Part shown: positions 886 to 16,991 of the stretch, piece after piece
Numbering within the stretch: the stretch's first letter is position 1
How the letters are laid out: every line of letters begins with the position of its first letter
Virus record (IMG/VR): IMGVR_UViG_2703718832_000008
Span: 1-16,991 of that record
Source: a virus
Taxonomy: Duplodnaviria > Heunggongvirae > Uroviricota > Caudoviricetes
Length of the DNA: 16,991 nucleotides
Direction: 5' to 3' (one strand)
Position numbers and translations under genes: made by a program
Notes under the pieces: model-generated
The model's input: the letters and a program-made list of their open reading frames with translations, nothing else
Told to the model about the DNA's origin: nothing
The model's database searches: none

Positions 886-909
886 GGTCACTCCCTTTGT
901 GACACCTAT

Positions 910-946: not shown

Positions 947-970
947 AATCAAGCATTTAGCTAACCTGAA

Positions 971-988
971 TTAGTTCATGCCGTACTG
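971..988 (-). other. fis: Remnant of the fis 3' end (Y-G-M-N-stop) marking the chromosome/island junction; putative attachment-site core
   Basis: Minus strand reads TGA CAG TAC GGC ATG AAC TAA. The last four codons plus stop match the Fis C-terminus (...KKYGMN) as I recall it, but an in-frame stop sits immediately upstream and the sequence beyond 988 is unrelated AT-rich DNA. Confidence 0.6.
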
Positions 989-1115
989 TCATATTAGCTG
1001 TTTTCATGCTTTTAGATGATTTTAATATTCATATAATAATCAATGTGTTGTATAAATTCATGCCTGTATATTGTTCCAGTGTTTTTCTTTGTTTATGCTA
1101 TTATGCAAGCAATTC

Positions 1116-1137
1116 TGTATAAACATTTGTATAAACA
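1116..1137 (+). repeat. Two direct copies of TGTATAAACA, 12-bp period, 20-40 bp upstream of int
   Basis: TGTATAAACA at 1116-1125 and 1128-1137 within the AT-rich int leader; possible integrase arm-type or regulator binding sites, or promoter elements. Confidence 0.35.
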
Positions 1138-1155
1138 CTTTGGGCTGGGTGGTCT

Positions 1156-2379
1156 ATGGCTGGCGAACTTAACAAACTGAGCGACAGGAAGTTAAAGGGA
1201 TTACATGGTATCCCGGCCAGTAAGATTGAGTTCTATGCTGATGGTGCCGGGCTGAGCGCCAAGGTAACGAAAGCTGGTGGTATTAGCTGGGTGTTTACTT
1301 ACCGACTCGACGGGCAGAAGCTGCATCGTCTTACTCTGGGACGATACCCGGATATGAGCCTCAAAGAAGCCCGTTCTTCGCGTGATAAATGCCGCCAATG
1401 GCTGGCCTCAGGTAAAGATCCAAAGCACCAGTTGGCGCTGGCCACTCAGGAAACGCTTAAACCGGTCACTGTTAAGGAAGCTATAGAATACTGGATACGC
1501 GAATATGCAGAAGAGAACCGCGCGAATGTTGAACGGCACAAAGCGGAGCTGCGAAAACACATTTATCCTTATATAGGGAAAATGGCGCTCGCTGACTGTG
1601 AAACACGATACTGGCTTGACTGCTTTGACAGGATGAAAAAGAAAACTCCAGTCGCCGCAGGTTATGTGTTCCAGATGTGCAAACAAGCCCTGAAATTCTG
1701 CCGGGTTCGTCGCTATGCTGTGAGTACCGCGCTTGAAGATTTAACAATTCCAGATGTCGGTAAAAAACAGGCAAAAAAAGACCGGGTATTAAACGATAAA
1801 GAGGCTGGCGATTTATGGGCTGCCATTTCCTCTGGCACTTGCTTCATGCCTTACTACACCAGGCTACTGACAATCTTAATGGTGTTTGGGTGCCGAACGC
1901 AGGAGGCCAGGCTATCAGAGTGGAGTGAATGGGATATGGATGCCTGGGTCTGGACAGTTCCCAAAGAGCACAGCAAGGGCGGCGAGAAGATTGTAAGACC
2001 TGTGCCGGATGCCATGCGCAAATTCATTGAAATACTGCATGATGAAACGAAACTATCCGGTCTTTTGCTTGGGTCGGTTAAAGGCAGTGAAGCGGTAAGC
2101 CAGTGGGGCCGTAGCGTTTATAAAAAGCTGGGACATTCTGAACCATGGACACTGCACGATCTAAGACGAACATTAGCAACGCATATGAATAATATGGGTA
2201 TAGCACCACACGTTGTTGAACAGTTGCTGGGGCACTCAATGCCGGGAGTCATGGCGATTTATAATCGCAGCCTGTACTTGCCTGAGAAACTGGATGCGCT
2301 GAATAAATGGTATGACCGTCTCGATATTTTGGCGGGTAATCACTCGAATATTGTTATTTTAAAGGCTGGTGAGAAATGA
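1156..2379 (+). CDS. int: Tyrosine site-specific integrase, P4-like family
   Basis: 407 aa; N-terminal arm-binding-like region, C-terminal catalytic region with HDLRRT and LLGHS...AIYNRSLY motifs (R..HxxR..Y catalytic pattern); GGGTGG ribosome-binding site upstream; placed at the island edge. Confidence 0.95.
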   Translation: MAGELNKLSDRKLKGLHGIPASKIEFYADGAGLSAKVTKAGGISWVFTYRLDGQKLHRLTLGRYPDMSLKEARSSRDKCRQWLASGKDPKHQLALATQETLKPVTVKEAIEYWIREYAEENRANVERHKAELRKHIYPYIGKMALADCETRYWLDCFDRMKKKTPVAAGYVFQMCKQALKFCRVRRYAVSTALEDLTIPDVGKKQAKKDRVLNDKEAGDLWAAISSGTCFMPYYTRLLTILMVFGCRTQEARLSEWSEWDMDAWVWTVPKEHSKGGEKIVRPVPDAMRKFIEILHDETKLSGLLLGSVKGSEAVSQWGRSVYKKLGHSEPWTLHDLRRTLATHMNNMGIAPHVVEQLLGHSMPGVMAIYNRSLYLPEKLDALNKWYDRLDILAGNHSNIVILKAGEK

Positions 2380-3164
2380 AAAAGATAAATAAAATGACCG
2401 ATTTGCCGAAATGGTTTTCATTGGACAATTACAATTCTATCAATGGGCTGAGTGATCTTGATTTAATTAATCAGTTAGCTATGAGAATGGAAGTTGCTAA
2501 TGATGATTTTGAATGGCTTGATACCTATCCCGGAGCAAGAAATGAGTTCGCTTCATTTATGGAAGAAAGATTTAGTAACCCAATTCGGCCGCTGAGCGGA
2601 AAATTATTTGCAGAAAAAATAAAAAGAAAAAAATATTCTGAATGGCAAATGGATTCCGTCGGAGGTGTTGAGCCTTTAAGATTAATTGATGTGATGCAGT
2701 TGTCTAAGAAAGCCGCTCATTATATTGATGAAAATAAAATTAATCGCTCATTGCGTGGACAAAAAAGGTCTGTAAGTAAGACCATAAGCGATAATGATCA
2801 AATGCACATTACTTTAGATTTGTCTTGGCCTGATGAAATTTTATTAAGCGATTTGGCTGCATTGTTGCCAATATGGCGAATGGATCTTGAAAGGAAAAGT
2901 GAAAATAGTTGTAAGTTAAGTAATAGCTGGAGTGTAATCAAAAAGAAAATATTCGATTACAAGATATTGCCAATGTTAGACCTTATGGAGTGGGCTAAAA
3001 TTAACAATGCAACAATCACTAACAGAGTTTTATCTTTGGCCCTATTTCCTAATGCAGAGTATGACGCCATTGGTATCGCTCAAACGATCAAACCGTTCAT
3101 TAGAAATTTTTCCGCAGATTTTTCTATAGAAATATTAAAGCGCAAAGCTATGGATTCATTTTAA
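2376..3164 (+). CDS. Hypothetical protein, AT-rich accessory gene translationally coupled to int
   Basis: 262-aa ORF whose ATG overlaps the int stop (ATGA). Visibly lower GC than the flanking genes, with several A-tracts. No recognisable catalytic motif by eye. Confidence 0.65.
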   Translation: MKKINKMTDLPKWFSLDNYNSINGLSDLDLINQLAMRMEVANDDFEWLDTYPGARNEFASFMEERFSNPIRPLSGKLFAEKIKRKKYSEWQMDSVGGVEPLRLIDVMQLSKKAAHYIDENKINRSLRGQKRSVSKTISDNDQMHITLDLSWPDEILLSDLAALLPIWRMDLERKSENSCKLSNSWSVIKKKIFDYKILPMLDLMEWAKINNATITNRVLSLALFPNAEYDAIGIAQTIKPFIRNFSADFSIEILKRKAMDSF

Positions 3165-3267
3165 TCGGGAAATCCATATAGAAATAATTAAAAATTATCT
3201 AATAGTGAACCATGCTTTTTAATAGCAAATAATAGCCTCCACAAAACGTAGAAACAGTGGAGGCAAC

Positions 3268-3552
3268 ATGCAAAATATCACCTTTACCCCGCCAAATCCT
3301 GAGCAGCGCCGCACCCTTTTAGAAGAGTACGGCTTTAAGTTCGACCGTCGAATTCGTGAAGAAGAATGTAGCGAGATCACCAGCCTTTCCCGTTCCAGCC
3401 GCTGGAAAATGGAGCAGCAAGGTCGATTCCCGCCACGCTGCCACTTTGGTCGTAACAGCTGCGCCTGGCTTCTTTCTGATGTGCTCTGGTGGGTTCGTAA
3501 TCCGCCTGCAGTAGAGAACGTCAATAACCCGTACAGCCGCAAATCTGCTTAA
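3268..3552 (+). CDS. alpA: AlpA-family phage transcriptional regulator (excisionase-like helix-turn-helix)
   Basis: 94 aa; region RIREEECSEITSLSRSSRWKMEQQGRFPPRCHFGRNSCAWLLSDVLWWV matches the AlpA/Vis-type helix-turn-helix as I recall it; GGAGG ribosome-binding site at 3259-3263. Confidence 0.88.
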   Translation: MQNITFTPPNPEQRRTLLEEYGFKFDRRIREEECSEITSLSRSSRWKMEQQGRFPPRCHFGRNSCAWLLSDVLWWVRNPPAVENVNNPYSRKSA

Positions 3553-3572
3553 TTAACTACAGGTAATAGAAT

Positions 3573-4379
3573 ATGGAAAAAATAACTGCCTTGGCTGGCA
3601 GCGGCCAAACTCAATCCGAAACCAGCCAGAAAGATATTTCCAGCGATAATTTTGCTGCGCGAATCCCTGTAACCATGAGCAAGATTGGCGGGAAAGAAAC
3701 CCAGTCTGTAAGCGGACGTAAGCTGCATACGTTTCTGGCTGTAGGGCGAGACTTTACCACCTGGATGAAAGCACGCATCAAACAGTATGGGTTTGTTAAA
3801 GGGGTTGATTATGTAATTGTTGAAGATTTGAGCACCCCAAAACGGGGGAGCGCAAAATCTCGCCAACAAGTCGAGCACGATTACATTGTTAGCCTGAATA
3901 TGGCTAAAGAGCTTTCTATGGTTGAGCGCAACGCGCAAGGCAAGATGGCCCGCCAGTATTTCATCGACTGTGAAGAACGTCTGCGCCGCGTAGCACCAGA
4001 GGAACATGAGGCGGCGTTGTTGGGCTGGCGTAAAAATCGTGTAGCTGCCTGCGAAGATCATAAGAGTATGGCCGATGCAATGAAGGGCTATATCGAGCGC
4101 ACCGGCGACAGGCAGCACGGCTTTGCCTACAGCAATGAATGCTCGTTCCTGAATAGCCTTGTGCTGGGTATGCACCCGCGAGTGTGGGCGAAACAGAAAG
4201 AAATCCCGGTTAAGCAGGTGCGTGACCATATGAACGCCGATCAGCTCGCGCTGCTGGCTTATCTGGAAAGCCGTGATTGTGCTCTGCTGGATCTTGATAC
4301 CCGTACAGCAACCCGTAAGGCGAAACTCACCGAACTGGCACAACGCTGGCTGGTGAAGCGTGTTGGAGGTGCTGAGTGA
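3573..4379 (+). CDS. Phage antirepressor-like protein (AntA/AntB N-terminal domain)
   Basis: 268 aa; segment SGRKLHTFLAVGRDFTTWMKARIKQYGFVKGVDYV fits the AntA-domain pattern (LH.FL.V...F..W...RI..YGF..G.DY). Only 20 bp downstream of alpA, so probably co-transcribed. The start could instead be the internal Met at about 3675. Confidence 0.7.
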   Translation: MEKITALAGSGQTQSETSQKDISSDNFAARIPVTMSKIGGKETQSVSGRKLHTFLAVGRDFTTWMKARIKQYGFVKGVDYVIVEDLSTPKRGSAKSRQQVEHDYIVSLNMAKELSMVERNAQGKMARQYFIDCEERLRRVAPEEHEAALLGWRKNRVAACEDHKSMADAMKGYIERTGDRQHGFAYSNECSFLNSLVLGMHPRVWAKQKEIPVKQVRDHMNADQLALLAYLESRDCALLDLDTRTATRKAKLTELAQRWLVKRVGGAE

Positions 4380-4539
4380 TTTTGCATAACTCAATCAGGG
4401 TTGCGCAGAATTTGAGCAGGCGAAATTCGCACGCGCAAATCAAGCTCGGTGATATGCCGAGTTTGAACAACCGCGTACGTTTAACGTACGGACATCGCAA
4501 CCCATTGAATCAATTTGATTATAACGAACCGTTAGAATT

Positions 4540-4730
4540 GGCGAGCAACAAACACGAACAGTATTCGGGTTCGCCTGAACATCAACACTGCTTAGGTTCG
4601 GCAATCATCTTTAAAGGATGTATCAAGGAAAATCAACAACGTGCAGTTGAGGTTCCAACGAATAACGTAGAGAGCTGCAATGGCAGCGCATTTTTGCTCT
4701 ACGAGGGAAATCAACAACGTACAGTTTTGT
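4540..4730. repeat. Four degenerate direct repeats (~30 bp units, consensus roughly ATCAACAACGTGCAGTTGAGGTTC) in a noncoding region
   Basis: Related units start near 4547, 4581, 4631 and 4710; the two best copies are AAATCAACAACGTGCAGTT (4629-4647) and AAATCAACAACGTACAGTT (4708-4726). Two CGTACG palindromes lie just upstream at 4472-4488. No convincing ORF on either strand. Confidence 0.5.
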
Positions 4731-4860
4731 ACCGTAATCCAAATTTGGCTTACGAGAGGGTAGTACCTCAAAGCCACCAGGTTAACCACGCCGCCAAAAG
4801 ATATGCGGAAAACAAACCCTCTTTAAGAGGGGGAGTCCAGCGTTTGTGCGGGTCATTATG

Positions 4861-4892
4861 TCCTGCGCAAAACAACCCCGAAATTATCGGGG
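4861..4892 (-). terminator. Intrinsic terminator for the minus-strand RHH gene
   Basis: 6-bp stem CCCCGA/TCGGGG with 5-nt loop (4876-4892), followed on the minus strand by TTGTTTTG; sits about 30 nt downstream of the RHH stop. Confidence 0.55.
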
Positions 4893-4923
4893 CAGTCCAC
4901 AGCATTACGGGGAGTAACCCTGT

Positions 4924-5115
4924 TCAGCCTTTTGGCTCGATGCCTTGTCGCAAAAGTTCTTTACGGGCAAGAGCCTTTAGCCAATTGCCAAGGCTCACGC
5001 CTTCCCGGCTGGCAGCCTCATTTAGCTGCTGGCGTAGTTCGGGTGTTATGCGGATCTGGAAGGTCGGTGACAAACCTTCACCTTTCGGAGTTTTATCTCT
5101 TTTGATAGTTGACAT
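4924..5115 (-). CDS. Small ribbon-helix-helix (Arc/CopG-like) DNA-binding protein, putative island regulator
   Basis: 63 aa starting at the internal ATG (5113-5115) with an AGGAG ribosome-binding site upstream on the minus strand; segment FQIRITPELRQQLNEAASREGVSLGNWLKALARKEL has the beta-strand/helix-helix pattern of RHH proteins. The N-terminal extension to 5229 in the ORF track looks non-coding. Confidence 0.6.
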   Translation of the reverse strand: MSTIKRDKTPKGEGLSPTFQIRITPELRQQLNEAASREGVSLGNWLKALARKELLRQGIEPKG

Positions 5116-5163
5116 GTACGTACGTAATCTCCTACTATGGATTCTGTTATGTACGTACGTTAT
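5114..5163. promoter_or_regulatory. Two 15-bp operator-like palindromic sites ATGTACGTACGT[A/T]AT in a divergent control region
   Basis: Copies at 5114-5128 and 5149-5163, centres 35 bp apart; the first contains the perfect 10-bp palindrome TACGTACGTA. They lie between the divergently oriented RHH gene and the HNH-AP2/primase operon. Confidence 0.5.
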
Positions 5164-5444
5164 CACGGCGCATGTAACAAAAGCAACGCCCCGGAGTGCG
5201 GGAACACTGCCGAGGCGTCTAACCACCAACGTTAATAGGAGTAACGCTATGGCTATGCCGCAGTGTAACCAAACTCATCCTAAAAATCGCGTATTTATCT
5301 TTTTGGCTTTAAATCGTGCCGACATGCAGAGCAGGCCACATCGTGAAGTTATTACCGCCGTCAGTGAGCGGGAAGCACGTAAGCTGCTAGTTGGCCGTTT
5401 TATTTTGGTTTTTGCAGGACGCTTACCAGCCAAGGAGATTTATC

Positions 5445-5954
5445 ATGGCTAAATTAACCAATAAATATTTAAAAGAAATTTTAGAATACAGCCCAGAATC
5501 TGGGGTGTTTATTTGGAAAGTTTGTCGTGGTACTACAAAGGCAGGGGATATAGCTGGCAGTATCAAAGTAAGAGGGTATTTAGATATTAAGATTAATAAG
5601 AAGCTATATAAGGCTCATAGGCTCGCATGGTTTTATATGTATGGAGTTTGGCCCGCTAATCTAATTGACCATATTAATGGTAATCGCAGTGATAATCGGT
5701 TGTGTAACTTGCGAGAGGCCACTCACAAAGAAAATTGCAGAAATCAAAGGATGTATAAAAATAACAAGTCAGGAGTAAAGGGAGTTAACTGGAATAAAAC
5801 AGGAAGAAAATGGCTGGCTGCGTGTGCTGTTGACGGGAAAAGATATCACCTAGGAATGTTTGAAGATATTTCAGAAGCAGAGAAAACTATTAAAGATTTT
5901 CGTGAGAAATATCATGGGGAATTCGCCAAGCATGAAGTGACCGGGGAGTTATAA
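5445..5954 (+). CDS. HNH endonuclease with C-terminal AP2 DNA-binding domain (homing-endonuclease-like)
   Basis: 169 aa from ATG 5445 (AAGGAG ribosome-binding site 7 nt upstream). HNH_3-type motif HRLAWFYMYGVWPANLIDHINGNRSDNRLCNLREAT, then AP2-like SGVKGVNWNKTGRKWLAACAVDGKRYHLGMFEDISEAEKT. Visibly AT-rich compared with downstream genes. Confidence 0.8.
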   Translation: MAKLTNKYLKEILEYSPESGVFIWKVCRGTTKAGDIAGSIKVRGYLDIKINKKLYKAHRLAWFYMYGVWPANLIDHINGNRSDNRLCNLREATHKENCRNQRMYKNNKSGVKGVNWNKTGRKWLAACAVDGKRYHLGMFEDISEAEKTIKDFREKYHGEFAKHEVTGEL

Positions 5955-5955
5955 A

Positions 5956-6150
5956 ATGCGTGAGCCAATCTGTCTGGAGCAGGCCGAATATAAATCAGCG
6001 CTGGCTTCATCACTTTACGAAACCATCCTGGAAAAAGCCTCTGCTGAATGTTCAGAAACGCTGCTGAATCTGATTTCTATTGCGTGTGATTTTAATCAGG
6101 AAATTCACCGGGCATTAATCGCCGAGCTGCACATGGGAGAGACAAAATGA
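5956..6150 (+). CDS. Hypothetical small protein (64 aa)
   Basis: ATG immediately after the upstream stop, with GGGGAG ribosome-binding site; first of three tightly coupled small ORFs leading into the primase gene. Confidence 0.5.
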   Translation: MREPICLEQAEYKSALASSLYETILEKASAECSETLLNLISIACDFNQEIHRALIAELHMGETK

Positions 6151-6353
6151 GACAGGTTCCTTTTGAGGTCCTGATGCACGCCGAAGACGCACTGGCATAC
6201 AGCAATCAGGCTCTGGCTATGCTGGAAATCTGGATGGACTCCCTCGGCGAAGGTGATGAACACGAATCTAACTGTGTGGCCGCCATTTTCAGCCTGGTGC
6301 ATGAGTCCAAAGATCGTCTACAGAAAGCGCGGGAGGCTTCCAGTGCAAAATGA
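6147..6353 (+). CDS. Hypothetical small acidic protein (68 aa)
   Basis: ATGA start/stop overlap with the previous ORF; GGGAGAG ribosome-binding site. Confidence 0.5.
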   Translation: MRQVPFEVLMHAEDALAYSNQALAMLEIWMDSLGEGDEHESNCVAAIFSLVHESKDRLQKAREASSAK

Positions 6354-6597
6354 CTTTGTAAGCGATGCGCGGCACGGGAAGCGCGGAGAGTTCAAATTGC
6401 CGCTGTTTTGTGAACTGACTGCAGAAGGGCAGAGTCACATCACCTTTGCCCTAAAGTTTGCCCCCGAGTCTGTGGCTGTGTTCCATCCCGATTCGGGAGA
6501 AATATCTCACTGGCTCAGCCGCGGAAACGAGATTATCGACATTTACGGTTGCTATGCCGTCTTTCCTCGCAATGGCATTAGGGAGGAACAGCAATGA
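6343..6597 (+). CDS. Hypothetical small protein (84 aa, GTG start)
   Basis: GTG at 6343 preceded by GGGAGG 6 nt upstream; overlaps the previous stop and ends in an ATGA overlap with the primase start. The ORF-track start at 6253 would run inside the previous gene and has no ribosome-binding site. Confidence 0.45.
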   Translation: MQNDFVSDARHGKRGEFKLPLFCELTAEGQSHITFALKFAPESVAVFHPDSGEISHWLSRGNEIIDIYGCYAVFPRNGIREEQQ

Positions 6598-9284
6598 GCC
6601 GCGCAATTGAGATTATCCGTGAAGTTAAGCGCCGAGCTGCCGGAAGCTGGGAAAGCCTACTTCCTCAGTGCGGGGTGACGGTTCCGCCGAAAGGCCGTCA
6701 CGGCCCATGCGCCATCTGTGGTGGATCTGACCGATTTCACTACATTGACGACCACGGCGGCGGCGAGTGGCATTGTCGCCAGTGTGACGAGCCAAATCAC
6801 GGCGACGGTCTGGATCTCATTGCCAGATCTCAGGGCATTACCATAACCGCTGCGGCGCAGAAAGTATCCTCTGTGCTGGGTGTTGATGCCCGGACACCGG
6901 AACCGAAGCCAGCCAGAGAGAAGCCTCAGACGGATATCGCCGGGAAAGTTGCGGCGCTGGTTGCTAAAGCCTCTCCGGGGCAGTCTGCTTACCTTGCATC
7001 AAAGGGGCTTCAATGCCCCTTCCCGATGCTGTCCGATGGGTCGCTGCTGCTGGTGCTGAAAAACGGTGCTGGCGCGACGACAGGCGCACAGGTGATTAAG
7101 CCAGATGGCAGTAAGCGGCTGGTGGCCGGAACGGTAAAGAAAGGCTCTTTTTGCGTGGTTAATTCCGGTGAAACGCCGGAGACGGTGATTATCGCCGAAG
7201 GACTGGCAACGGCGCTTTCGGTTCAGCAGTTTCGCCCAGATGCGACAATTATCACAGCGATTGACGCCGGGAATTTGCTGTCAGTTGCGCAGGTGATGCG
7301 ACAGCGTTACCCGGATGCGCAGATCATCATCGCCGCAGATAACGATATTAAGCCTGGCGAACCAAACACGGGTAAATCAGCCGCAGAAAAAACCGCTAAA
7401 GCTGTCTCTGGCTGGGTAGCTTTACCTCAGTCTGAGGAAAAGGCCGACTGGAATGATTTTCACCAGCAACACGGGCTGGAAGCAGCCGCAGCAGCATTTA
7501 ATGATTCGATGTACCAGCCGGAGGGCGAAAAGGTGGTGGTAAAACTTAAGTCTATTGACGGCGGTAAAAAAGAGCAAAAATCAGCTCTGCAAGGTGACGA
7601 ACTGAAACCACGCGTGGAGAGCCGTAACGATGGCTTGTACTGGATTACGCCAAAGGTGGACAAGGACAGCGGAGAAATCATCAATAACGAAGCGTGGCTT
7701 TGTTCGCCTCTTGAGGTAGTTGGTTCAGGTAGTGACGGGGCAGAACGCTATCTTGTTTTGCGCTGGCGTTCGCCGCGTGGCCACGAAGATATTACCAGGG
7801 CGATCCCTTGCGCTGATGTTGGAGAGCGTGAGGGATGGCGCTCACTTAAAGCTGGAGGGGTTAACGTGACCACTAAAAACACCTTTCGTGCCATTCTGGC
7901 CGATTGGCTGCAGCAGTGTGGATCTGGTCAGGAATGGATTATCACTCATACCACTGGCTGGCATAATGGGGCATATATCATGCCTGATGGCGAAGTTATT
8001 GGTGATCCAGAGACACCCATTCTCTTTAATGGTCGCAGCGCTGCATCTTCCGGTTATGCCGTTTCTGGTACGGCTGAGGGCTGGCGGGATTCAGTGGCTT
8101 ATCTGGCCGGTGGCAACCCATCAATGATGCTGGGAGTGGCGGCGGCATTATCCGCGCCGCTTATTGGGCTGGTGGGTGCTGATGGTTTCGGTGTCCACTT
8201 GTTCGAGCAGTCGAGCGCCGGTAAGACCACTACAGCTAATATTGCGAGCAGTCTGTGGGGAGAGCCGGATGCTCTGCGCCTAACGTGGTACGGTACTGCG
8301 CTTGGTATCGCTAACGAAGCGGAGGCGCATAACGACAGTCTGTTACCGCTGGATGAAGTGGGGCAGGGGAGCAGCGCCAAAGACGTTGCCACTTCGGCAT
8401 ACACCTTGTTTAACGGTGCTGGAAAGCTGCAGGGAGCCAAAGAGGGCGGCAATCGGGAGTTGAAACGTTGGCGCACTGTAGCAATCAGTACCGGGGAAAT
8501 GGATATCGAGACGTTTCTTTCTGCTGGTGGGCTAAAAGTTAAGGCAGGCCAGTTGGTTCGCCTGCTGAATATCCCTATGGAGAAATCGACGGCCTTTCAT
8601 GGCCTGCAGAACGGCAAGGCTCATGCTGATGCACTGAAGCAGGCATGGATTGAAAATCACGGTGCAGCGGGCCGAGAGTGGGTTAAATGGTTGGCGGCTC
8701 ACCAGAAGGAAGCTAAACAGGCCGTACATGACGCCCAGACGCGCTGGCGCGGACTCATTCCGGCTGATTATGGCGAGCAGGTGCACCGCGTGGCAGAACG
8801 CTTTGCAATCCTTGAAGCTGCGCTGGTGACTGGTGCATCAATCACCGGATGGGATGAACAGGCCAGCCGTGATGCTATCCAGCATAGCTTTAATGCCTGG
8901 GTGAAAGAGTTCGGAACGGGAAATAAAGAGCACCAGCAGATCATCGAGCAGTGCGAGGCGTTTCTTAATGCTTATGGTCTGAGCCGGTTCGCCCCTTTGC
9001 CTTATGATCCTGCAAGCCTGCCAATCAGTAATCTTGCCGGGTATCGTAAGCGTAAGAGCAACCATGATGATGCGCCCATGGTGTTCTATACATTCCCTGC
9101 AACGTTTGAGAAGGAGATAGCGCAGGGATTTAATGCTAGGCAGTTTGCCCGTGCGCTTGCCGCTGCCGGTTTGCTCTCTGAGCCATCAAGTGGGAGAGGA
9201 TATCAACAGAAATCACCGCGAATTGATGGGCGCCAAATCAACGTTTATGTACTTCAACAAGTTGCAGAAGAAGGGGCGGAATAA
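6594..9284 (+). CDS. Primase-helicase (zinc-ribbon + TOPRIM primase + P-loop NTPase domains)
   Basis: 896 aa. N-terminal Cys/His cluster (CAICGG...HCRQC); TOPRIM-like IIAEGLATALS and IIAADND; Walker A SSAGKTT and Walker B-like LLPLDEV in the C-terminal half. Sits immediately upstream of the iteron origin. Confidence 0.9.
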   Translation: MSRAIEIIREVKRRAAGSWESLLPQCGVTVPPKGRHGPCAICGGSDRFHYIDDHGGGEWHCRQCDEPNHGDGLDLIARSQGITITAAAQKVSSVLGVDARTPEPKPAREKPQTDIAGKVAALVAKASPGQSAYLASKGLQCPFPMLSDGSLLLVLKNGAGATTGAQVIKPDGSKRLVAGTVKKGSFCVVNSGETPETVIIAEGLATALSVQQFRPDATIITAIDAGNLLSVAQVMRQRYPDAQIIIAADNDIKPGEPNTGKSAAEKTAKAVSGWVALPQSEEKADWNDFHQQHGLEAAAAAFNDSMYQPEGEKVVVKLKSIDGGKKEQKSALQGDELKPRVESRNDGLYWITPKVDKDSGEIINNEAWLCSPLEVVGSGSDGAERYLVLRWRSPRGHEDITRAIPCADVGEREGWRSLKAGGVNVTTKNTFRAILADWLQQCGSGQEWIITHTTGWHNGAYIMPDGEVIGDPETPILFNGRSAASSGYAVSGTAEGWRDSVAYLAGGNPSMMLGVAAALSAPLIGLVGADGFGVHLFEQSSAGKTTTANIASSLWGEPDALRLTWYGTALGIANEAEAHNDSLLPLDEVGQGSSAKDVATSAYTLFNGAGKLQGAKEGGNRELKRWRTVAISTGEMDIETFLSAGGLKVKAGQLVRLLNIPMEKSTAFHGLQNGKAHADALKQAWIENHGAAGREWVKWLAAHQKEAKQAVHDAQTRWRGLIPADYGEQVHRVAERFAILEAALVTGASITGWDEQASRDAIQHSFNAWVKEFGTGNKEHQQIIEQCEAFLNAYGLSRFAPLPYDPASLPISNLAGYRKRKSNHDDAPMVFYTFPATFEKEIAQGFNARQFARALAAAGLLSEPSSGRGYQQKSPRIDGRQINVYVLQQVAEEGAE

Positions 9285-9308
9285 AATACACATGTGAGGA
9301 TTGTTATT

Positions 9309-9601: not shown

Positions 9602-9638
9602 ATAGTTTTGCATCTATACACAAAAAATAGAGGATGTT

Positions 9639-9941
9639 ATGGACAAAAAAAGCAGTGATGACCTGGTATATTCGAAGGTGCTGATCCAGAAAGTGGTTGA
9701 GCACAAAGATATGTTTGGGGTTCCAGACAGCAAAACGGATTTGCAGCTTATGCCGCTTAGCGAATACCGGGAACTGGTGAAGCGAGAAGCTTTCTTTTTT
9801 GTGGATCACAATGGTTTCCTGCGCCATCAATTTTCTGGTGATGTTATGGCTGCCAGCAAAGAACAACTGGATATCCTTATCGGCGAATTGAAAGCGAAGC
9901 GTGAGCTGCTTGATGATGCTCTGGATTGCGCTAAGGAATAA
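9639..9941 (+). CDS. Hypothetical protein (100 aa) downstream of the origin
   Basis: ORF with GAGGA-like ribosome-binding site; acidic, helical-looking C-terminus; no recognisable family by eye. Confidence 0.5.
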   Translation: MDKKSSDDLVYSKVLIQKVVEHKDMFGVPDSKTDLQLMPLSEYRELVKREAFFFVDHNGFLRHQFSGDVMAASKEQLDILIGELKAKRELLDDALDCAKE

Positions 9942-9978
9942 TTTTGTAAATTATTTGTACTCATGTTTACCCGTGATT

Positions 9979-10003
9979 ACCCCTGTCTCTGATGGGGGTT
10001 TTC
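9979..10003 (+). terminator. Weak intrinsic terminator candidate
   Basis: CCCC/GGGG stem with 10-nt loop followed by TTTTCTTT, about 40 nt after the preceding stop codon. Confidence 0.3.
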
Positions 10004-10173
10004 TTTATATTTTTCATGTATATCTTGAAGAGTGGCACTCAGACGTGAGCCGCCACTGGCCGTTAAGTCAAGCTGTAGCGAGTACAGCCTGCGAGAGGCA
10101 GAAAAAGATTTAACGGCCTCCCCTCCAAGCGCTGGTTTCACGTCTCTACGTTAATTGATACGGAAACCACTCC

Positions 10174-11340: not shown

Positions 11341-11350
11341 TTTGACGTTT

Positions 11351-11372
11351 AAGGGGCTGCGGCCCCTTTTTG
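11351..11372 (+). terminator. Intrinsic terminator/attenuator immediately after the capsid gene
   Basis: GC-rich hairpin AAGGGGC-TGCG-GCCCCTT followed by a T-run, 10 nt after the capsid stop and 20 nt before the protease start. Confidence 0.6.
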
Positions 11373-11391
11373 CCCTCTGTGGAGTCCAGTA

Positions 11392-11952
11392 ATGAAAACA
11401 ATTGATTTTGAAATCCGTACTTCCGAAGTGAGCGCCAGCAACAAAAAGCTGGTGGGCTATGCCGTGCGCTGGAACAGCCTGTCAGAAGTTATCTGGGATG
11501 AGTTCCGCGAACAGTTTGCGCCGGGAGCGTTTAAAGACAGCCTGGCATCCGGTAGCGATGTGCGTGCGCTGTATGAGCATAACTATACCCAGCTGCTGGG
11601 CCGCACTAAATCCGGCACGCTGGTGCTGTCCGAAGACGATACCGGGCTGCGCTTCGAGCTGACTCCGCCGAATACCCAGCTTGGCAACGATGTGCTGGAG
11701 CTGGTGGAGCGCGGGGATATCTCCGGCATGAGCTTTGGTTTCCGGGCGCTGAAAGAGGCGTGGGATATTGCTCAGTCTCCATATCTGCGCACTGTTACCG
11801 CTGCCGAACTGCGGGAGATTACCGTTACCTCTATGCCTGCTTATCCTGAGTCTGGCGTGGAAATCGCGCACCGTTCGCTTTTCTCCCAACATCCTGAACT
11901 GCGCCGCGCTGGCGATAACCGTCGCCGCTGGGCTGATTTAGCGGGGCTCTGA
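11392..11952 (+). CDS. Prohead protease, HK97 family
   Basis: 186 aa; resembles HK97-family prohead proteases (segments ALYEHN...LLGRT and LRFEL); GGAG ribosome-binding site. Confidence 0.9.
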   Translation: MKTIDFEIRTSEVSASNKKLVGYAVRWNSLSEVIWDEFREQFAPGAFKDSLASGSDVRALYEHNYTQLLGRTKSGTLVLSEDDTGLRFELTPPNTQLGNDVLELVERGDISGMSFGFRALKEAWDIAQSPYLRTVTAAELREITVTSMPAYPESGVEIAHRSLFSQHPELRRAGDNRRRWADLAGL

Positions 11953-11953
11953 T

Positions 11954-13189
11954 ATGTGGAATATCTGGCCGTTTGGCCGTAAGTCTGAACCCTCAGAGCA
12001 GCGCAGCATGACCATTGATGAATTTCTGGCGATGGCAGGGATTCCAAATACCGGATCAGGCGAGTATGTGTCTGCGGGTACTGCGGAATCTCTGCCGGCG
12101 GTCATGAACGCCGTATCAGTTATCAGTGAGGCGGTGGCAACAATGCCCTGCTATCTCTACCGCGTCCGTAATGATAATGGTCGTGAGGCGCGAGAATGGC
12201 TGAGTAATCACCCGGTGGATTTTCTCCTGAACGAGCAGCCGAACGACTGCCAGACGCCTTATCAGTTTAAACGCACGATGATGCGCCATTGTCTGCTGAA
12301 TGGTAACGCCTATGCGGTGATCCAGTGGGGCCGCGACGGCCAGCCGCAATCCCTGCACCCGTATGCGCCGGGGGCGGTTGTTCCTGAGCGTATCGGCCAG
12401 CATAAGTACAAATACACCGTTACAGAGCCGTTTACCGGGGCTGTGCGCACCTATCTACAGGAAGAGATTCTGCACCTGCGTTACTCCACCGATGATGGCT
12501 TTCTGGGGCGTTCGCCTATTACTACGTGCCGTGAGGCGCTGGGGTTAGGTCTGGCCCAACAGCGCCACGGTGCCAGCATTATGAAAGATGGCATGATGGC
12601 GGCGGGCGTCGTCACTACTGCTGAATGGCTCGACAGCGTGAAGGGTAAGCAGGCTCTGGACGCACTGGAGCGCTACAAAGGTGCCAGAAATGCCGGGAAA
12701 ACGCCGATCCTTGAAGGTGGCATGGACTACAAGCAGCTTGGCATGAGCAATCAGGATGCCGAATGGCTGGCGTCGCGCCGGTTCTCCATTGAAGACATTG
12801 CCCGCATGTTCAACGTGTCGCCCATCTTCCTGCAGGAATACAGCAACAGCACCTACAGCAATTTCAGCGAAGCGAGCCGCGCCTTTCTCACCATGACCAT
12901 GCGCCCGTGGCTGGCGAACTTCGAGCAACAAATCAAATCTGCTTTGCTGGTGGCCTCTCCGGTTCCGGGAACCCGTTATCAGGTGGAGTTTGACTCTGCT
13001 GACCTTCTCCGTGCCACACCTACCGAGCGTTACGCCACTTATGAGCGAGGCATTAAGAACGGGATCATGAACCCGAACGAAGCCCGTGAGCGCGAGGGGA
13101 TGCCGCCGCGTGAAGGTGGTGACGAATTCAGCCAGGCATGGAAGCAGGAAGTGAAGATCAGCAAAGACGGCAAGGAAGGTGACGCATGA
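11954..13189 (+). CDS. Portal protein, HK97 family
   Basis: 411 aa; start 1 nt after the protease stop; size and sequence character consistent with HK97-type portal proteins. Confidence 0.9.
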   Translation: MWNIWPFGRKSEPSEQRSMTIDEFLAMAGIPNTGSGEYVSAGTAESLPAVMNAVSVISEAVATMPCYLYRVRNDNGREAREWLSNHPVDFLLNEQPNDCQTPYQFKRTMMRHCLLNGNAYAVIQWGRDGQPQSLHPYAPGAVVPERIGQHKYKYTVTEPFTGAVRTYLQEEILHLRYSTDDGFLGRSPITTCREALGLGLAQQRHGASIMKDGMMAAGVVTTAEWLDSVKGKQALDALERYKGARNAGKTPILEGGMDYKQLGMSNQDAEWLASRRFSIEDIARMFNVSPIFLQEYSNSTYSNFSEASRAFLTMTMRPWLANFEQQIKSALLVASPVPGTRYQVEFDSADLLRATPTERYATYERGIKNGIMNPNEAREREGMPPREGGDEFSQAWKQEVKISKDGKEGDA

Positions 13190-13524
13190 GAGCCGGGGGG
13201 CTGAGAAGCCGCGTCACTATTCGGGTATTCACTACCCACAGGGAGCCGTCCGGTCAGGTTGTTCAGGTCTGGGAAGACGGGGAAACCATATGGGCTGAGG
13301 TTAAGGGGATCAGTGGCCGAGAGTTAATGGCGTCAGGTGCCGAGGTTGCCGAAGCGACGATCCGCGTTTGGGTGCGTTTCCGCCGTGATATTACCGCAGC
13401 CAACCGTCTGAAAGTGCTTACTGGCCCGTTTGCTGGCAGCACTCTCAATATTATCGGGCCTCCTATTCCTGATTCGGAAGGTACCCGGCTGGAAATTCTC
13501 TGCAAGACAGGAACGGAAAAATGA
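13186..13524 (+). CDS. Head closure / head-tail adaptor protein
   Basis: 112 aa; ATGA overlap with the portal gene; resembles phage head-closure proteins and sits in the expected head-completion position. Confidence 0.75.
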   Translation: MRAGGLRSRVTIRVFTTHREPSGQVVQVWEDGETIWAEVKGISGRELMASGAEVAEATIRVWVRFRRDITAANRLKVLTGPFAGSTLNIIGPPIPDSEGTRLEILCKTGTEK

Positions 13525-13814
13525 CAGCAGAAATCACCCTGGAAGAAGCAAAGCTGCATTGCCGTATTGATGATGATTATGAAGACACGCTGATACAGGC
13601 GTACATCGATGCGGCGCTGGAGGTTTGCCAGAAGCATATCGGCAAGCGGTTTGATAACGGGCTGGAGTTTACGCCAGCTATCAAGATTGGCTGTCTGATG
13701 TACGTATCTCAGCTGTACGAGTACCGCACGATGATTGGTGATACCGACGCCAAAGAGATACCGATGGCTGTCTCTGCGTTGTGGTCTGTCTATCGTGATG
13801 TGGGGGTGTACTGA
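13521..13814 (+). CDS. gp6-like head-tail connector protein
   Basis: 97 aa; N-terminus ITLEEAKLHCRIDDDYEDTLIQAYIDAA is the usual signature of gp6-like connector proteins; ATGA overlap upstream. Confidence 0.85.
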   Translation: MTAEITLEEAKLHCRIDDDYEDTLIQAYIDAALEVCQKHIGKRFDNGLEFTPAIKIGCLMYVSQLYEYRTMIGDTDAKEIPMAVSALWSVYRDVGVY

Positions 13815-14257
13815 TGCCGTGGCAACCACTACGCCGGTGCAATGAGCCGGGATGTAATAAACGGGTGAAGTCTGGCAAGTGTGACGAGCATAAGCGGGAT
13901 GCCCGCCGACAAAGCGACAGCCGAAGAGGTACGCGAACAGAGCGTGGTTACTCCAACCGCTGGGGCGAATACCGTCGTCATTTTCTAAAAGCTAATCCGC
14001 TGTGTGTCCATTGTCTCAAGGCTGGCGTCTATGCATCGGCAACTATCGTCGATCACATCATCCCTATCGAGGGTGAAGCTGATGTGCTGTTCTGGCCCGC
14101 CAGTAATCACCAGTCGTTATGCGCTGCCTGTCATGGACGGAAGACAACCACAACAGACCCGGTGACGAAGCAGCAGCGTAAAGCCGGTAAGTTCCGCGAG
14201 CAGGAAGAAGCAGCACGTCATCGCACCGACTGGATCTATGAGGCAAACAATGACTGA
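13814..14257 (+). CDS. HNH endonuclease associated with the terminase
   Basis: 147 aa; Cys-rich N-terminus, HNH motif DHIIPIEGEAD...NHQSLCAACH; located directly upstream of terS as in cos-type HK97-like packaging modules. Confidence 0.9.
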   Translation: MPWQPLRRCNEPGCNKRVKSGKCDEHKRDARRQSDSRRGTRTERGYSNRWGEYRRHFLKANPLCVHCLKAGVYASATIVDHIIPIEGEADVLFWPASNHQSLCAACHGRKTTTTDPVTKQQRKAGKFREQEEAARHRTDWIYEANND

Positions 14258-14402
14258 GCAGGAACAGCAGCGGCTGATTAGTGGGCTGATAAAGCAGCGC
14301 GAGGCATGGCAACCAGCCAGACAGAGAGCGCATAAGAAGCCCGTAGCAAAGCGCATGAGCCAGCGTGACCGGGAGCTTATGGAATGCTTTCGCAACCGCT
14401 GA
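14250..14402 (+). CDS. Possible small basic protein (50 aa); uncertain
   Basis: ATG overlaps the HNH stop by 8 nt; the ORF is below the length cut-off of the supplied track; product is Q/R/K-rich; no supporting motif. Confidence 0.3.
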   Translation: MTEQEQQRLISGLIKQREAWQPARQRAHKKPVAKRMSQRDRELMECFRNR

Positions 14403-14409
14403 CAGGCCG

Positions 14410-14530
14410 AATGGACGGGGTGGGGGAGGTTTTCAGGACAAACCCCTCTCAGCGAGGAACCACCCGCCCCCTCAAATTTTTACGCACGGTGATTTTTTTG
14501 AAAATAAAACAGACAGGAAAACAGTAAGTT
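14410..14530. other. Candidate cos / packaging-recognition region between HNH and terS
   Basis: GC-rich G-tract GGGGTGGGGGAGG (14417-14429) and C-tract CCACCCGCCCCCTC (14460-14473) with partial dyad symmetry, followed by T-runs; cos-type phages with HNH-TerS-TerL place cos here. Confidence 0.4.
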
Positions 14531-14887
14531 ATGGCAAGACCACCCAAACCGCCCGCCTACCTTGATGAAATCGCGGCGCAGCAGTGGAAAGCAAAGGCGA
14601 AGCAGCTGGCGGAGCGCGGTGATCTGACGCCTGCCGACTGGAACAACCTTGAGCTGTATTGCGTCAATTACTCGATGTACCGCAAAGCCGTGGAAGACCT
14701 TGCCACGCGGGGATTCAGCATAGTGAACAGCCAGGGCGGTGAGAGCCGTAACCCGGCACTGAGCGCAAAAGCGGATGCCGAAAAAATTCTCATAAAAATG
14801 TCGTCGCTGCTGGGCTTTGATCCGGTAAGCCGCCGCCGTAATCCGGTAGAAACGGAAGAGGAGGACGAGCTTGACCGTCTGGAATGA
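14531..14887 (+). CDS. terS: Terminase small subunit, P27 family
   Basis: 118 aa; N-terminus MARPPKPPAYLDEIAAQQWK and overall size match P27-family small terminases. Confidence 0.85.
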   Translation: MARPPKPPAYLDEIAAQQWKAKAKQLAERGDLTPADWNNLELYCVNYSMYRKAVEDLATRGFSIVNSQGGESRNPALSAKADAEKILIKMSSLLGFDPVSRRRNPVETEEEDELDRLE

Positions 14888-16532
14888 TTACGCAAACGCC
14901 ATTAAATCGGGTGAAATTCCGGCCTGTAAGCGCGTAAAACAGGCCGTCGAGAGGTACTTTTCAGACCTGAATGACCCCCGTTATGAGTTCGATACGGCGA
15001 CCGTGGAGCGGTTTATTGCCTTCTCCCGGCTCTGCCCACACGTCAAAGGCCCGCTTAGGGGCCAGCCAATAGAGCTGGAACCGTGGCAGCAGTTCGCCTT
15101 TGCTAACCTGCTGGGCTTTAAGGTCAGGGAGTCAGGCCGCCGTAAGTACAGCAGCGCCTTTATTGAGGTGCCGCGCAAGAACGCCAAATCAACCGTAGCC
15201 GCCATGCTGGCTAACTGGTTTCTGGTAATGGAGAAGGGCCAGCAGGATATCTACACGGCGGCGGTAAGCCGGGATCAGGCCCGAATCGTGTTCGACGATG
15301 CCCGCCAGATGTGCCTGCTGTCAAAACCGCTGAAAAAGCGCGTCAATATCCAGGCGCATAAGGTCATTTTTCCGAAGAGCAACAGCCTGTTAAAGCCGCT
15401 GGCGGCGAAAGCGGCCACCATTGAAGGGACTAACCCCAGCCTGGCGATTGTCGATGAATACCACCTTCACCCGGATAACGGCGTTTATTCCGCCCTCGAG
15501 CTGGGTATGGGCGCACGTCCGGAGGCGATTTTGTTCGCTATCACTACCGCCGGGAGTAACGTTGTCTCTGCCTGTAAGCAGCATTATGACTACTGCTGTC
15601 AGATTCTGGCCGGGGAGGAGGGCAACGATTCGCTGTTTGTACTGATCTACGAGCTGGACGACGAAAGCGAGGTTGAGCAGCCTGAAATGTGGATCAAGGC
15701 TAACCCTAACCTGCATGTGTCCGTTGACGCAGCGAAACTAGAATCCACTATCCAGAAAGCCCGGGGTATACCGTCGCAGTGGGTGGAAATGCTGACCAAG
15801 CGTTTCAATATCTGGTGTCAGGGCTCCACTCCGTGGATGGGAGCCGGCGCATGGGATGCCTGTGCGCTCGAATATACCGAAGAAGATCTGTCCGGGATGG
15901 AGTGTTACGCCGGATTTGACCTGTCCTCAACCAGCGATATTACCAGTGTGAGTTACGCTTTCCCGTTTGAACGCGAGATCAGGCTTCTTACCCGGCACTA
16001 TCTGCCCGAAGCACAACTACTTAACGTTGCTAACAAAAACCGCGCCATCTATCGGCAGTGGGTAAAAGCGGGCTGGATACGCACCACCCCCGGCGACTGT
16101 ATTGACTATGATCGCATCCGTGACGATATCCTGCGCGACGCTGAAATATTCAATATCCGGCTGGTGGGCTTTGATACGTGGAACGCGACACACTTGCGAA
16201 CCCAGTTACAGGGGGCTGGCCTCGATGTGGAGCCGTTCCCGCAAACCTATCTGAAATTCAGTCCGGTAGCGAAATCTTTTGAGGTTTTTGTTAACCGCAA
16301 GGTGGTGCGCCATCGTGGCGATCCGGTTCTGGCCTGGGCGATTGGTAACGTGGTGATGGAGTCCGATGCCAACGCCAATATCAAACCTAACAAAAAGAAA
16401 TCCTCCAACAAGATAGACCCGGCGGTTTCTGCACTCATGGCGTTCGGCACATTCCTGGCAGAACACGAAGATTTTGCTTTCGATATGAGCGACAGTCACA
16501 AAGAGCGACTGGCTTTATTTAATGGGATTTGA
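14871..16532 (+). CDS. terL: Terminase large subunit
   Basis: 553 aa; ATPase P-loop-like PRKNAKST, nuclease-like C-terminal half; apparent TTG start at 14871 with GAGGAGGA ribosome-binding site, overlapping the terS 3' end by 17 nt. Confidence 0.92.
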   Translation: MTVWNDYANAIKSGEIPACKRVKQAVERYFSDLNDPRYEFDTATVERFIAFSRLCPHVKGPLRGQPIELEPWQQFAFANLLGFKVRESGRRKYSSAFIEVPRKNAKSTVAAMLANWFLVMEKGQQDIYTAAVSRDQARIVFDDARQMCLLSKPLKKRVNIQAHKVIFPKSNSLLKPLAAKAATIEGTNPSLAIVDEYHLHPDNGVYSALELGMGARPEAILFAITTAGSNVVSACKQHYDYCCQILAGEEGNDSLFVLIYELDDESEVEQPEMWIKANPNLHVSVDAAKLESTIQKARGIPSQWVEMLTKRFNIWCQGSTPWMGAGAWDACALEYTEEDLSGMECYAGFDLSSTSDITSVSYAFPFEREIRLLTRHYLPEAQLLNVANKNRAIYRQWVKAGWIRTTPGDCIDYDRIRDDILRDAEIFNIRLVGFDTWNATHLRTQLQGAGLDVEPFPQTYLKFSPVAKSFEVFVNRKVVRHRGDPVLAWAIGNVVMESDANANIKPNKKKSSNKIDPAVSALMAFGTFLAEHEDFAFDMSDSHKERLALFNGI

Positions 16533-16682
16533 GCATAAAGCGTAAAGGCAGAATTATCTTGAGGTTATCAGGAATATAAAATTGCTCTAGATCACTACAT
16601 TGCTGTCGTGGAATAGGAAGAGTCTGTTTTGTTGTTTATAAATGTATTGCAGGGCTTTTCCTGTTCAAACTTCTGGTGAAAT

Positions 16683-16991
16683 ATGACTGATAAATGGGCT
16701 GATTACCTTATTTCTAAAGTCCGATATAACGATAAACACACTCACATTACCCATGTGTATGTGCATGTCGATAATGGCGATACTGTTGGAGAAGGGACAT
16801 CAGAAACACGGCAGTGGGTAGTGAATAAAATCGATAGCGGCTATACCTTTTACACCATTTTCAAAGGTGATGACGGTAAGTGGAAGAAAGGTCAAAAAGT
16901 GGTTAAGGACCGTGTCAACGGTACTGATTACATTACTACTAGACCTAATGGTACATCCAAGGATAACTTAGAAAACCTTCCTGAGTACTAA
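16683..16991 (+). CDS. DUF3892 domain protein; AT-rich accessory gene
   Basis: 102 aa; sequence character matches the DUF3892 family as I recall it; stop codon is the last three bases of the window; preceded by a 150-bp AT-rich spacer. Confidence 0.7.
   Translation: MTDKWADYLISKVRYNDKHTHITHVYVHVDNGDTVGEGTSETRQWVVNKIDSGYTFYTIFKGDDGKWKKGQKVVKDRVNGTDYITTRPNGTSKDNLENLPEY

Follow-up and report, generated by a model that had tools for sequence, protein, structure and literature searches.

The 16,991-nt stretch of DNA analysed here (hereafter the window; positions 1 to 16,991 of the IMG/VR record IMGVR_UViG_2703718832_000008) very probably consists of the chromosomal gene yhdJ followed by a functional capsid-forming phage-inducible chromosomal island (cf-PICI) of the EcCIGN02175 lineage, inserted into an Escherichia coli chromosome at the 3' end of fis and intact, the window stopping short of its last ~170 bp. 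The cf-PICI family was published in 2022-23 and founded on EcCIEDL933 (Alqurainy et al., bioRxiv 10.1101/2022.09.08.507074), and the EcCIGN02175 lineage was dissected in 2025 (He et al., bioRxiv 10.1101/2025.02.11.637232). Members carry int, alpA and rep together with a full gene set for small capsids and for HNH/TerS/TerL packaging; they have no tail genes and require the tails of a helper phage. A cf-PICI at fis is an already-known kind of element, and the island of the window is a mosaic sibling of the experimentally studied EcCIGN02175, not a new kind of system.

As a yardstick we used the cfPICI model of SatelliteFinder, which has 11 core components and forbids tails and holins. The presence of each component on the SatelliteFinder list was judged from Pfam matches above the gathering threshold with near-full coverage of the profile. 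All 11 are in the window: an integrase, an alpA-type regulator, a pri-rep gene, the major capsid protein, a prohead protease, a portal, a head-tail adaptor, a head-tail connector, an HNH endonuclease, TerS and TerL. These genes, together with a final DUF3892 gene, form one co-oriented block on the + strand after yhdJ, and they look intact because the Pfam matches span essentially whole profiles. An earlier note on this DNA, made from its letters alone, had listed int, alpA, an antirepressor, a primase-helicase, capsid, protease, portal, head closure, connector, HNH, TerS and TerL, and had taken the element for a cf-PICI. Every gene that it named is present, intact and on the + strand, but it left out a DUF6387 gene (2376-3164), an Arc/HicB-like gene (4924-5115), an Icd-like gene (5249-5452) and an HNH_3/AP2 gene (5445-5954). 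Its interpretation is upheld by the complete set of core components, by the absence of the forbidden tail and holin components and by the attB site and head proteins shared with EcCIGN02175. Every trait of the family that can be read from a sequence was in fact found: the island is of satellite size and bounded by attachment (att) sites, its empty site is known from K-12, and in its head and packaging genes it stands apart from phages as a separate lineage, the adaptor being the exception.

Limits and contents of the island

The left limit of the island was set by alignment to the empty fis-yhdJ site of K-12, which the window matches up to position 985; the other flank resumes with a 78-bp overlap. 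The earlier placement of this boundary at 989 was right within 3 nt, since the K-12 homology stops at 985. The chromosomal gene yhdJ (1-891, - strand) is followed by attL (908-985), the chromosomal version of a 78-bp imperfect direct repeat that takes in the terminator of fis and the final 15 nt of the gene itself. The att core (973-985) is a 13-bp identical sequence, AGTTCATGCCGTA, which corresponds to the 3' end of fis, and from the alignment the crossover would have to fall in this 13-bp stretch only.

The right limit was read from contigs of ERZ28580864:scaffold_155, which were found through look-up of the TerL and AntA proteins and are 100% identical to the window over 1-14379 (contig L019) and 4871-16991 (contig L005). 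There, the DUF3892 gene is followed by attR, fis, dusB, prmA and panF. attR, at the window-equivalent positions 17086-17163 (L005 12216-12293), matches attL at 67 of 78 positions; it is the island's own copy of the repeat and rebuilds the fis terminator. Because attR lies 95-172 bp past the window end in these identical contigs, the island measures ~16.19 kb from core to core and ends ~630 bp after terL, with chromosomal genes on both flanks. The earlier note had reasoned that a tail or lysis module just beyond 16991, or a far attachment site more than about 25 kb away, would point to an ordinary prophage. Neither is the case, since the extension past 16991 reached the far site after ~100-170 bp, for ~16.19 kb from att to att, and then ran directly into fis-dusB-prmA.

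Two tandem copies of TGTATAAACA (1116-1137, + strand) stand upstream of int and are candidate arm-type Int sites (P' arm). The same doublet is seen again just before attR (L005 ~12190-12215), and thus on both sides of attP. Because it both adjoins attR and precedes int, we consider these doublets to be probable arm-type sites for the Arm-DNA-bind_3 integrase. A terminator-like hairpin, read from the scaffold sequence, separates DUF3892 from the right doublet.

The absence of tail, baseplate and lysis genes, already proposed in the earlier note, is borne out at several levels. No tail or lysis family was among the Pfam or PHROG matches of any open reading frame (ORF) of at least 50 aa scanned in the window, no holin-like membrane-spanning segment was seen in any credible small ORF of the window, and the identical contigs run from DUF3892 straight to fis. 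The gene after terL (DUF3892, 16683-16991, + strand, 102 aa, Pfam 4.2e-12) is indeed AT-rich cargo as had been suggested, with 39.8% GC vs 55.1% for the head module. AF2 models it with confidence (pLDDT 92) as a small, beta-rich domain, for which no neighbour was found among solved structures, and a defence role is assigned to DUF3892 in the literature by computational prediction only. The second cargo gene, DUF6387 (2376-3164, + strand, Pfam 5.5e-30), has 34% GC. Among the cargo and function-less ORFs, PADLOC gave no match for DUF6387, DUF3892 or a 100-aa ORF upstream of the capsid gene (orf100).

The head and packaging module, entirely on the + strand, opens with an HK97-fold major capsid gene (10174-11340; Pfam Phage_capsid 3.8e-69). 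The top PDB match of the protein is 9GYI (E = 7e-161), the solved EcCIEDL933 capsid, at ~66% identity, and capsids of gene transfer agents (GTAs) are among its other PDB homologues. Where EcCIEDL933 has its distinctive connector loop, the loop of the window capsid is 4 residues shorter. Then come a prohead serine protease of the S78 type (11392-11952; Pfam 4.8e-48), the portal (11954-13189; Pfam Phage_portal 1.9e-96), the head-closure protein Hc1, which cf-PICI papers call the head-tail adaptor (13186-13524; Pfam Phage_HCP 3.3e-22, PHROG 25; the adaptor in what follows), a gp6-like head-tail connector, or Ad1 (13521-13814; Pfam Phage_connect_1 1.1e-11, PHROG 40), and the packaging-associated HNH endonuclease (13814-14257; Pfam HNH 7.5e-7, PHROG 144 3e-39). 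A small conserved ORF of ~50-54 aa (14238-14402; PHROG 3173 2e-17; called in L005) separates the HNH gene from terS (14531-14887; P27/Terminase_4 type, Pfam 1.4e-25), and terL (14871-16532) encodes the ATPase and nuclease domains recognised by Pfam.

Upstream of terS, past the small ORF that follows HNH, there is a non-coding block (14417-14507) made of a G-run and a C-run, GGGGTGGGGGAGG ... CCCGCCCCCTCAAATTTTTACGCACGGTGATTTTTTTGAAAATAA. In alignments this block is kept across families of Enterobacterales, even in the Hafnia and Xenorhabdus relatives, whose head-module DNA is only ~70% identical, and we infer from its position and conservation that this block is a candidate cos site. The break of the linear vB_KppS-Ant record (LR881103.1, 16,548 bp, named as an Escherichia phage) falls inside the same block. 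We did not accept the ends of that record as proof of cos termini: ~70 nt are lacking there, the record starts 22 nt before terS and trimming or re-orientation of the record is possible, which leaves it suggestive only.

Spread of the island and competing explanations

The island is not confined to one chromosome. Among 5,426 complete E. coli genomes, 539 have a match to its head module, which extends over 80% or more of the module in 31 of them, and a TerL protein identical to that of the window is indexed in 272 assembly blocks of public data. In one of the sequences retrieved (L021, 7336-20807), the island is 99.95% identical to the window from 908 on, yhdJ is missing and the flanks are only ~75% identical to the E. 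coli flank. Two others (L010 and L023) repeat this pattern of a near-identical island in ~75%-identical flanks, the identity across copies ranging from 98.7 to 99.95%. A near-identical island in such divergent flanks indicates a recent transfer between genera, and near-identical cf-PICIs in different genera have been published previously (He et al. 2025, bioRxiv 10.1101/2025.02.11.637232). More distant head modules, at 69-94% nucleotide identity, were found by probing species-representative genomes with a conserved portal 24-mer, which returned 7 genera or species, among them Pectobacterium, Hafnia, Intestinirhabdus, Xenorhabdus, Enterobacter soli and K. pneumoniae ATCC 13883; an adaptor-specific 32-mer had no match among the species-representative genomes. 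In a further sequence (L020, CP110160.1, 7308-20807), the same alpA-antA and head-packaging modules are joined to a different integrase at a different site, by PQQ-dehydrogenase and multicopper-oxidase genes. This arrangement is a case of integrase module swapping.

Among 50,697 phage records, the capsid is matched at 95% or more only in vB_KppS-Ant (16.5 kb), in an unannotated Salmonella contig and at the end of a 106.5-kb Klebsiella record; the next match, at 62%, is a 15.3-kb Pasteurella record, and all full-size phages stand at 44% or less. For the portal and the connector, the full-size phage maxima are 33% and 36%. At such identities, these three proteins are not recent phage derivatives. 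This bears directly on the first alternative, that deletions stripped an HK97-like temperate phage of its tail and lysis modules and left an immobile remnant. Such a decayed prophage would explain why the head and packaging genes have homologues in HK97-type phages, and why the adaptor is 63-74% identical to phage Hc1; however, it is very unlikely, because (i), all the genes and both att sites are intact, (ii), an island of the same ~16-kb build is found again, at 98.7-100% identity, in several chromosomes, of which some belong to other genera and have flanks at ~75%, (iii), the capsid, portal and connector are as distant from every full-size phage as just described, (iv), the left half, with alpA, the Icd-like gene and the primase-helicase with its iterons, is PICI-like and not lambdoid and, (v), relatives were recovered as ~16.5 kb of packaged DNA and a sister element is experimentally mobile. 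Nor does the window hold a complete HK97-like prophage, in which tail, lysis and immunity genes would stand by the head module within ~35-45 kb.

Several of these database records deserve a remark of their own. vB_KppS-Ant is a satellite-sized linear record obtained from induced particles and deposited as an induced prophage; neither Pfam nor PADLOC supports the label of its 765-aa "tail length tape measure protein". Klebsiella phage P12620-1 (PQ569648.1, 106.5 kb) carries a cf-PICI at one end (90645-106349) and may be a chimeric assembly, and Pasteurella phage Pmp8 (OR544139.1, 15.3 kb) is satellite-sized. Several database "phages" are, or contain, cf-PICIs, a reminder that ~16 kb records such as vB_KppS-Ant are satellites.

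Even less probable is a classical PICI or P4-like satellite that re-uses the helper capsid and whose head genes would merely interfere with the helper. The left arm is of the P4/PICI type (arm-binding integrase, AlpA, Icd-like protein, Zn-ribbon/Toprim primase-helicase) and would suit such an element, but the window has portal, head-closure and connector genes, three components that the PICI model of SatelliteFinder forbids. In EcCIEDL933, moreover, mutants in each of the homologous head or packaging genes abolished the transfer of the island (with a severe drop for one hypothetical gene) and left the helper unaffected. On the P4 side, the Pfam scan of the ORFs gave neither Psu nor any other capsid-size or transactivation family, Sid, Delta and Cpm not being searched by name. 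An equally small chance goes to a complete minimal virus or GTA-like particle with a tail or entry function hidden in one of the several function-less ORFs (DUF6387, DUF3892, orf100 and small ORFs), a notion to which the GTA capsids among the PDB homologues lend some colour: these genes are AT-rich and occupy slots that hold unrelated genes in sister elements, which makes them cargo and not conserved structural genes, DUF3892 is a protein of 102 aa without structural neighbour, and the tail-less capsids of relatives were reported to be non-infective until phage tails were added.

We therefore return to a functional cf-PICI, against which several points must be weighed. The last ~170 bp and attR were taken from identical public contigs and lie outside the window itself. 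Inducibility, capsid size, packaging specificity and tail dependence are drawn wholly from homology, and the cos site and the promoter are guesses made from conservation or consensus. A defect in this particular mosaic is also possible, because its adaptor, connector and HNH alleles (55%, 83% and 66% identical) and its type of replication module differ from those of EcCIGN02175. The little probability that we withhold from a functional island is accordingly shared among three possibilities: a copy inactivated not long ago or the remnant of a prophage, another type of satellite, and an unrecognised autonomous particle.

A life cycle may be suggested on the model of the relatives. The integrated island would be quiescent, with an Arc-like repressor gene facing the rightward operon, until a helper phage or SOS-linked signals turn on alpA; AlpA and Int would then excise the island at the 13-bp core. 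Helper induction through alpA and dependence on helper tails are proposed from relatives, the alpA product being 99% identical to that of EcCIGN02175. The excised circle would be replicated by the primase-helicase from the adjacent iteron origin, while the island's capsid, protease and portal would build small procapsids sized for ~16 kb. HNH, TerS and TerL would cut at cos, located between the HNH gene and terS, and would restrict packaging to the DNA of the island. That the island makes its own small capsids, presumably of the T=4 type, and restricts packaging to its own DNA is what we infer from the 97-99% identity of its head proteins to those of EcCIGN02175 and from the ~66% identity to the T=4 capsid of EcCIEDL933. 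The adaptor and the connector would complete a tail-less head able to dock on siphophage tails, most likely HK106-like, and the tail would decide the recipient host. By analogy with relatives, lysis of the cell would be left to the phage.

cf-PICIs rank with the commonest phage satellites of Enterobacteriaceae and are the one class shown to cross genera, by joining their own DNA-filled heads to any compatible phage tails at hand. The window offers a clean natural case of cross-genus copies and of modular shuffling of replication genes, cargo slots and neck genes, as published, and may serve as a positive control for satellite detection.

Adaptor, left arm and replication module

The adaptor (13186-13524), which faces the tail and is the putative determinant of tail specificity, is the only head protein that stands near real phages: its identity to the Hc1 protein is 74% for the Klebsiella prophage ST147-VIM1phi7.2, 70% for phage Fraca and 63% for both mEp234 and HK106, and the sole similarity of the island to true phages at the DNA level falls in the adaptor gene. 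HK106 is the known helper of EcCIEDL933. We compared the adaptors of satellites with Hc1 of HK106 and gp9 of HK022, taking the tail compatibilities from He et al. 2025 (bioRxiv 10.1101/2025.02.11.637232). The adaptor of EcCIEDL933, published to use HK106 tails only, is closer to HK106 (47% vs 39% for HK022); that of KpCIDSM30104, which uses HK022 tails only, is closer to HK022 (50% vs 32% for HK106); and that of EcCIGN02175, which uses both, is about as close to one as to the other (HK106 41%, HK022 44%). The similarity pattern thus fits the published compatibility in the three cf-PICIs out of three. For the window adaptor, the values are 63% for HK106 vs 37% for HK022, and we predict that the island takes its tails from phages of the HK106 type or the Klebsiella phi7.2 type rather than of the HK022 type. 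It is tempting to speculate that the adaptor is a swappable cassette captured from helper-type phages and that its sequence predicts the tail donor, a tentative idea to which we give rather less than even weight. The link between adaptor allele and tail donor gives a testable rule in principle, but with only three known cases the pattern is for now a lead and not a rule. The adaptor of vB_KppS-Ant is identical to that of the copy in K. pneumoniae ATCC 13883.

The left arm starts with a tyrosine integrase that has arm-binding and catalytic domains (1156-2379, + strand; Pfam Arm-DNA-bind_3 5e-19, Phage_integrase 2e-17). Beyond the DUF6387 cargo gene lies alpA (3268-3552, + strand; Pfam Phage_AlpA 3.9e-10, PHROG 2790 1e-39), an excisionase and transcriptional activator; alpA is the induction switch of Gram-negative PICIs. 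The variable slot after alpA holds an AntA/Ant-type antirepressor gene (3573-4379, + strand; Pfam AntA 1.5e-23, PHROG anti-repressor Ant 8e-40), whose C-terminus gives a weak PADLOC match to the candidate family PDC-S22. As a weaker reading, AntA may derepress resident helper prophages and so secure tails, like P4 epsilon does with P2. This gene and the idea that the adaptor predicts the tail are the only parts of the analysis that go slightly beyond the published work that we found.

An Arc/HicB-like ribbon-helix-helix gene on the - strand (4924-5115; Pfam HicB 4e-5, PHROG Arc-like repressor 2.5e-5) is divergent from the replication operon, is called as a 63-aa gene in two of the public contigs (L023 and L024) and is a candidate repressor; terminator-like hairpins stand downstream of it (4893-4875 and 4831-4817). 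The best sigma-70-like promoter match of the window (TTGACA-18-TACTAT, 5109-5138, + strand) is a consensus match ahead of the rightward operon, the first gene of which encodes the small Icd-like protein (5249-5452, + strand; NCBIfam phage_ICD_like 9e-17, PHROG 1743). On public contigs, gene callers report instead a 358-aa ORF (4376-5452), which we rejected as a spurious read-through: only its last ~65 residues match anything (Icd-like), and the remainder reads as a low-complexity translation and overlaps the real Arc/HicB-like gene on the other strand. This call masks the Arc/HicB-like gene, the Icd-like gene and the likely early promoter.

The HNH_3/AP2 homing endonuclease gene (5445-5954, + strand; Pfam HNH_3 5.8e-16, PHROG 99 1e-75, PADLOC HEase) is missing from contig L009, which is otherwise 99.8% identical from 5956 on. 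It is a free-standing mobile insertion between the Icd-like gene and the next ORF, orf64, separate from the packaging HNH. In two other sequences, a different HNH_3 gene lies between capsid and protease (L008 5980-6525; L022 17643-18188), and homing endonucleases appear to move within cf-PICIs. A search for LexA boxes (CTGT-N8-ACAG, at most 1 mismatch) gave 7 matches in the window vs 5.3 expected, and the match upstream of int (1064-1079) is at chance level. The whole window gave no Rfam family at gathering thresholds and no tRNA.

Three small conserved ORFs (5956-6150, 6147-6353 and 6343-6597, + strand; PHROG 35285 and 2196, both function-less), all called in the two identical contigs L005 and L019, lead to the primase-helicase gene (pri-rep, 6594-9284, + strand), in which Pfam recognises Zn-ribbon, Toprim and DUF927 domains. 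Just 3' of its stop codon, a region of 41% GC (9309-9601) contains 11 iterons of TGAACCAAC in both orientations and is a candidate origin. The motif has 14 matches in the window, 11 in the array and 3 elsewhere, vs a mean of 3.8 in shuffled sequences, and none of 200 dinucleotide-preserving shuffles reached 14. The earlier mention of a primase-helicase with its origin is justified in that the array has the place and form expected of a PICI origin.

The pre-capsid variable region of the window is nearly empty, the origin being followed only by orf100 (9639-9941, + strand; PHROG 1957) and a terminator-like hairpin (9979-9999). In sister islands the same slot holds defence candidates: PDC-M18A/B in EcCIGN02175 (L011 9860-11417) and a pPIWI-associated nuclease in ABW_S38 (L004 13248-14093). 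Downstream of the hairpin, the 5' leader of the capsid operon contains a 12-nt inverted repeat, GGCCGTTAAGTC / GATTTAACGGCC (10058-10118), without Rfam match, which could be a regulatory element for late-operon expression.

Relation to known phages and satellites

The HK97-type siphophages (HK97, HK106, HK022 and Klebsiella ST147-VIM1phi7.2) share with the island an HK97-fold capsid, an S78 protease, an HNH-dependent cos terminase and a neck of the gp6/gp7 type. However, they measure ~40 kb vs ~16 kb for the island, the order of the head genes is rearranged in the island and the capsid, portal and connector are only 33-44% identical; the window also lacks the tail, lysis, immunity and lambdoid replication genes of these phages. 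On the other side, the classical Gram-negative PICIs (EcCICFT073 type) and the P4-like satellites share a tyrosine integrase, AlpA, an Icd-like gene and a primase-helicase with adjacent origin, but they use the capsid proteins of their helper and are devoid of portal, connector, adaptor and TerL, all of which are encoded in the window.

Within the cf-PICIs, EcCIGN02175 (the cf-PICI of E. coli GN02175, read from the GN06667 copy at CP147587 472,705-488,942, 16,238 bp; Table S1 of He et al. 2025, bioRxiv 10.1101/2025.02.11.637232) is induced, packaged and transferred with the tails of HK022 and HK106 (same study). It shares with the window island its attB, which lies between yhdJ and fis at the 3' end of the latter, as well as the 16.2 kb size class and the gene order. 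The proteins are nearly identical over the integrase (97%), AlpA (99%), capsid (98.7%), protease (97.8%), portal (98%), TerS (96.6%), TerL (97.8%) and DUF3892 (100%), whereas the adaptor (55%), connector (83%) and HNH (66%) are lower and the DNA alignment covers only ~57% of the window. EcCIGN02175 has unrelated genes in the slots where the window carries DUF6387 (after int) and AntA (after alpA), it has a D5_N/DUF5906-type primase where the window has the DUF927 primase-helicase, its pre-capsid hotspot is filled with the PDC-M18A/B candidate and it is without the HNH_3 insertion. The replication module aside, these differences are the variable regions described by He et al. (bioRxiv 10.1101/2025.02.11.637232).

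KpCIDSM30104 / vB_KppS-Ant is close as well over the integrase (97%), AlpA (99%), capsid (98%), portal (96%), TerS (97%) and TerL (93%), but its adaptor (43%), its HNH (61%) and its primase, which is a different one, set it apart, and its 765-aa gene after terL stands in place of DUF3892.

EcCIEDL933 (NZ_CP008957.1 ~1,680,329-1,694,760) was read from this record of the EDL933 chromosome; "Escherichia phage ECO95 1-6-1" contigs, considered as a source for it, turned out to be EcCIGN02175-like at 97.5%. Unlike the window island, EcCIEDL933 lies at an attB between roxA and phoQ. The order of its modules is nevertheless that of the window: int, alpA, Icd-like gene, DUF927 primase, capsid, protease, portal, head closure, connector, HNH, small ORF, TerS, TerL and cargo. 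Its DUF927 primase is of the same type as that of the window (64%), its portal, TerS and TerL are 80%, 81% and 82% identical, and the integrase (50%), capsid (65%), protease (63%), adaptor (53%) and connector (64%) are more distant. These protein identities make the window island a mosaic, in which the integration functions and head backbone of the EcCIGN02175 type are combined with a replication module of the EcCIEDL933 type and with neck alleles of its own.

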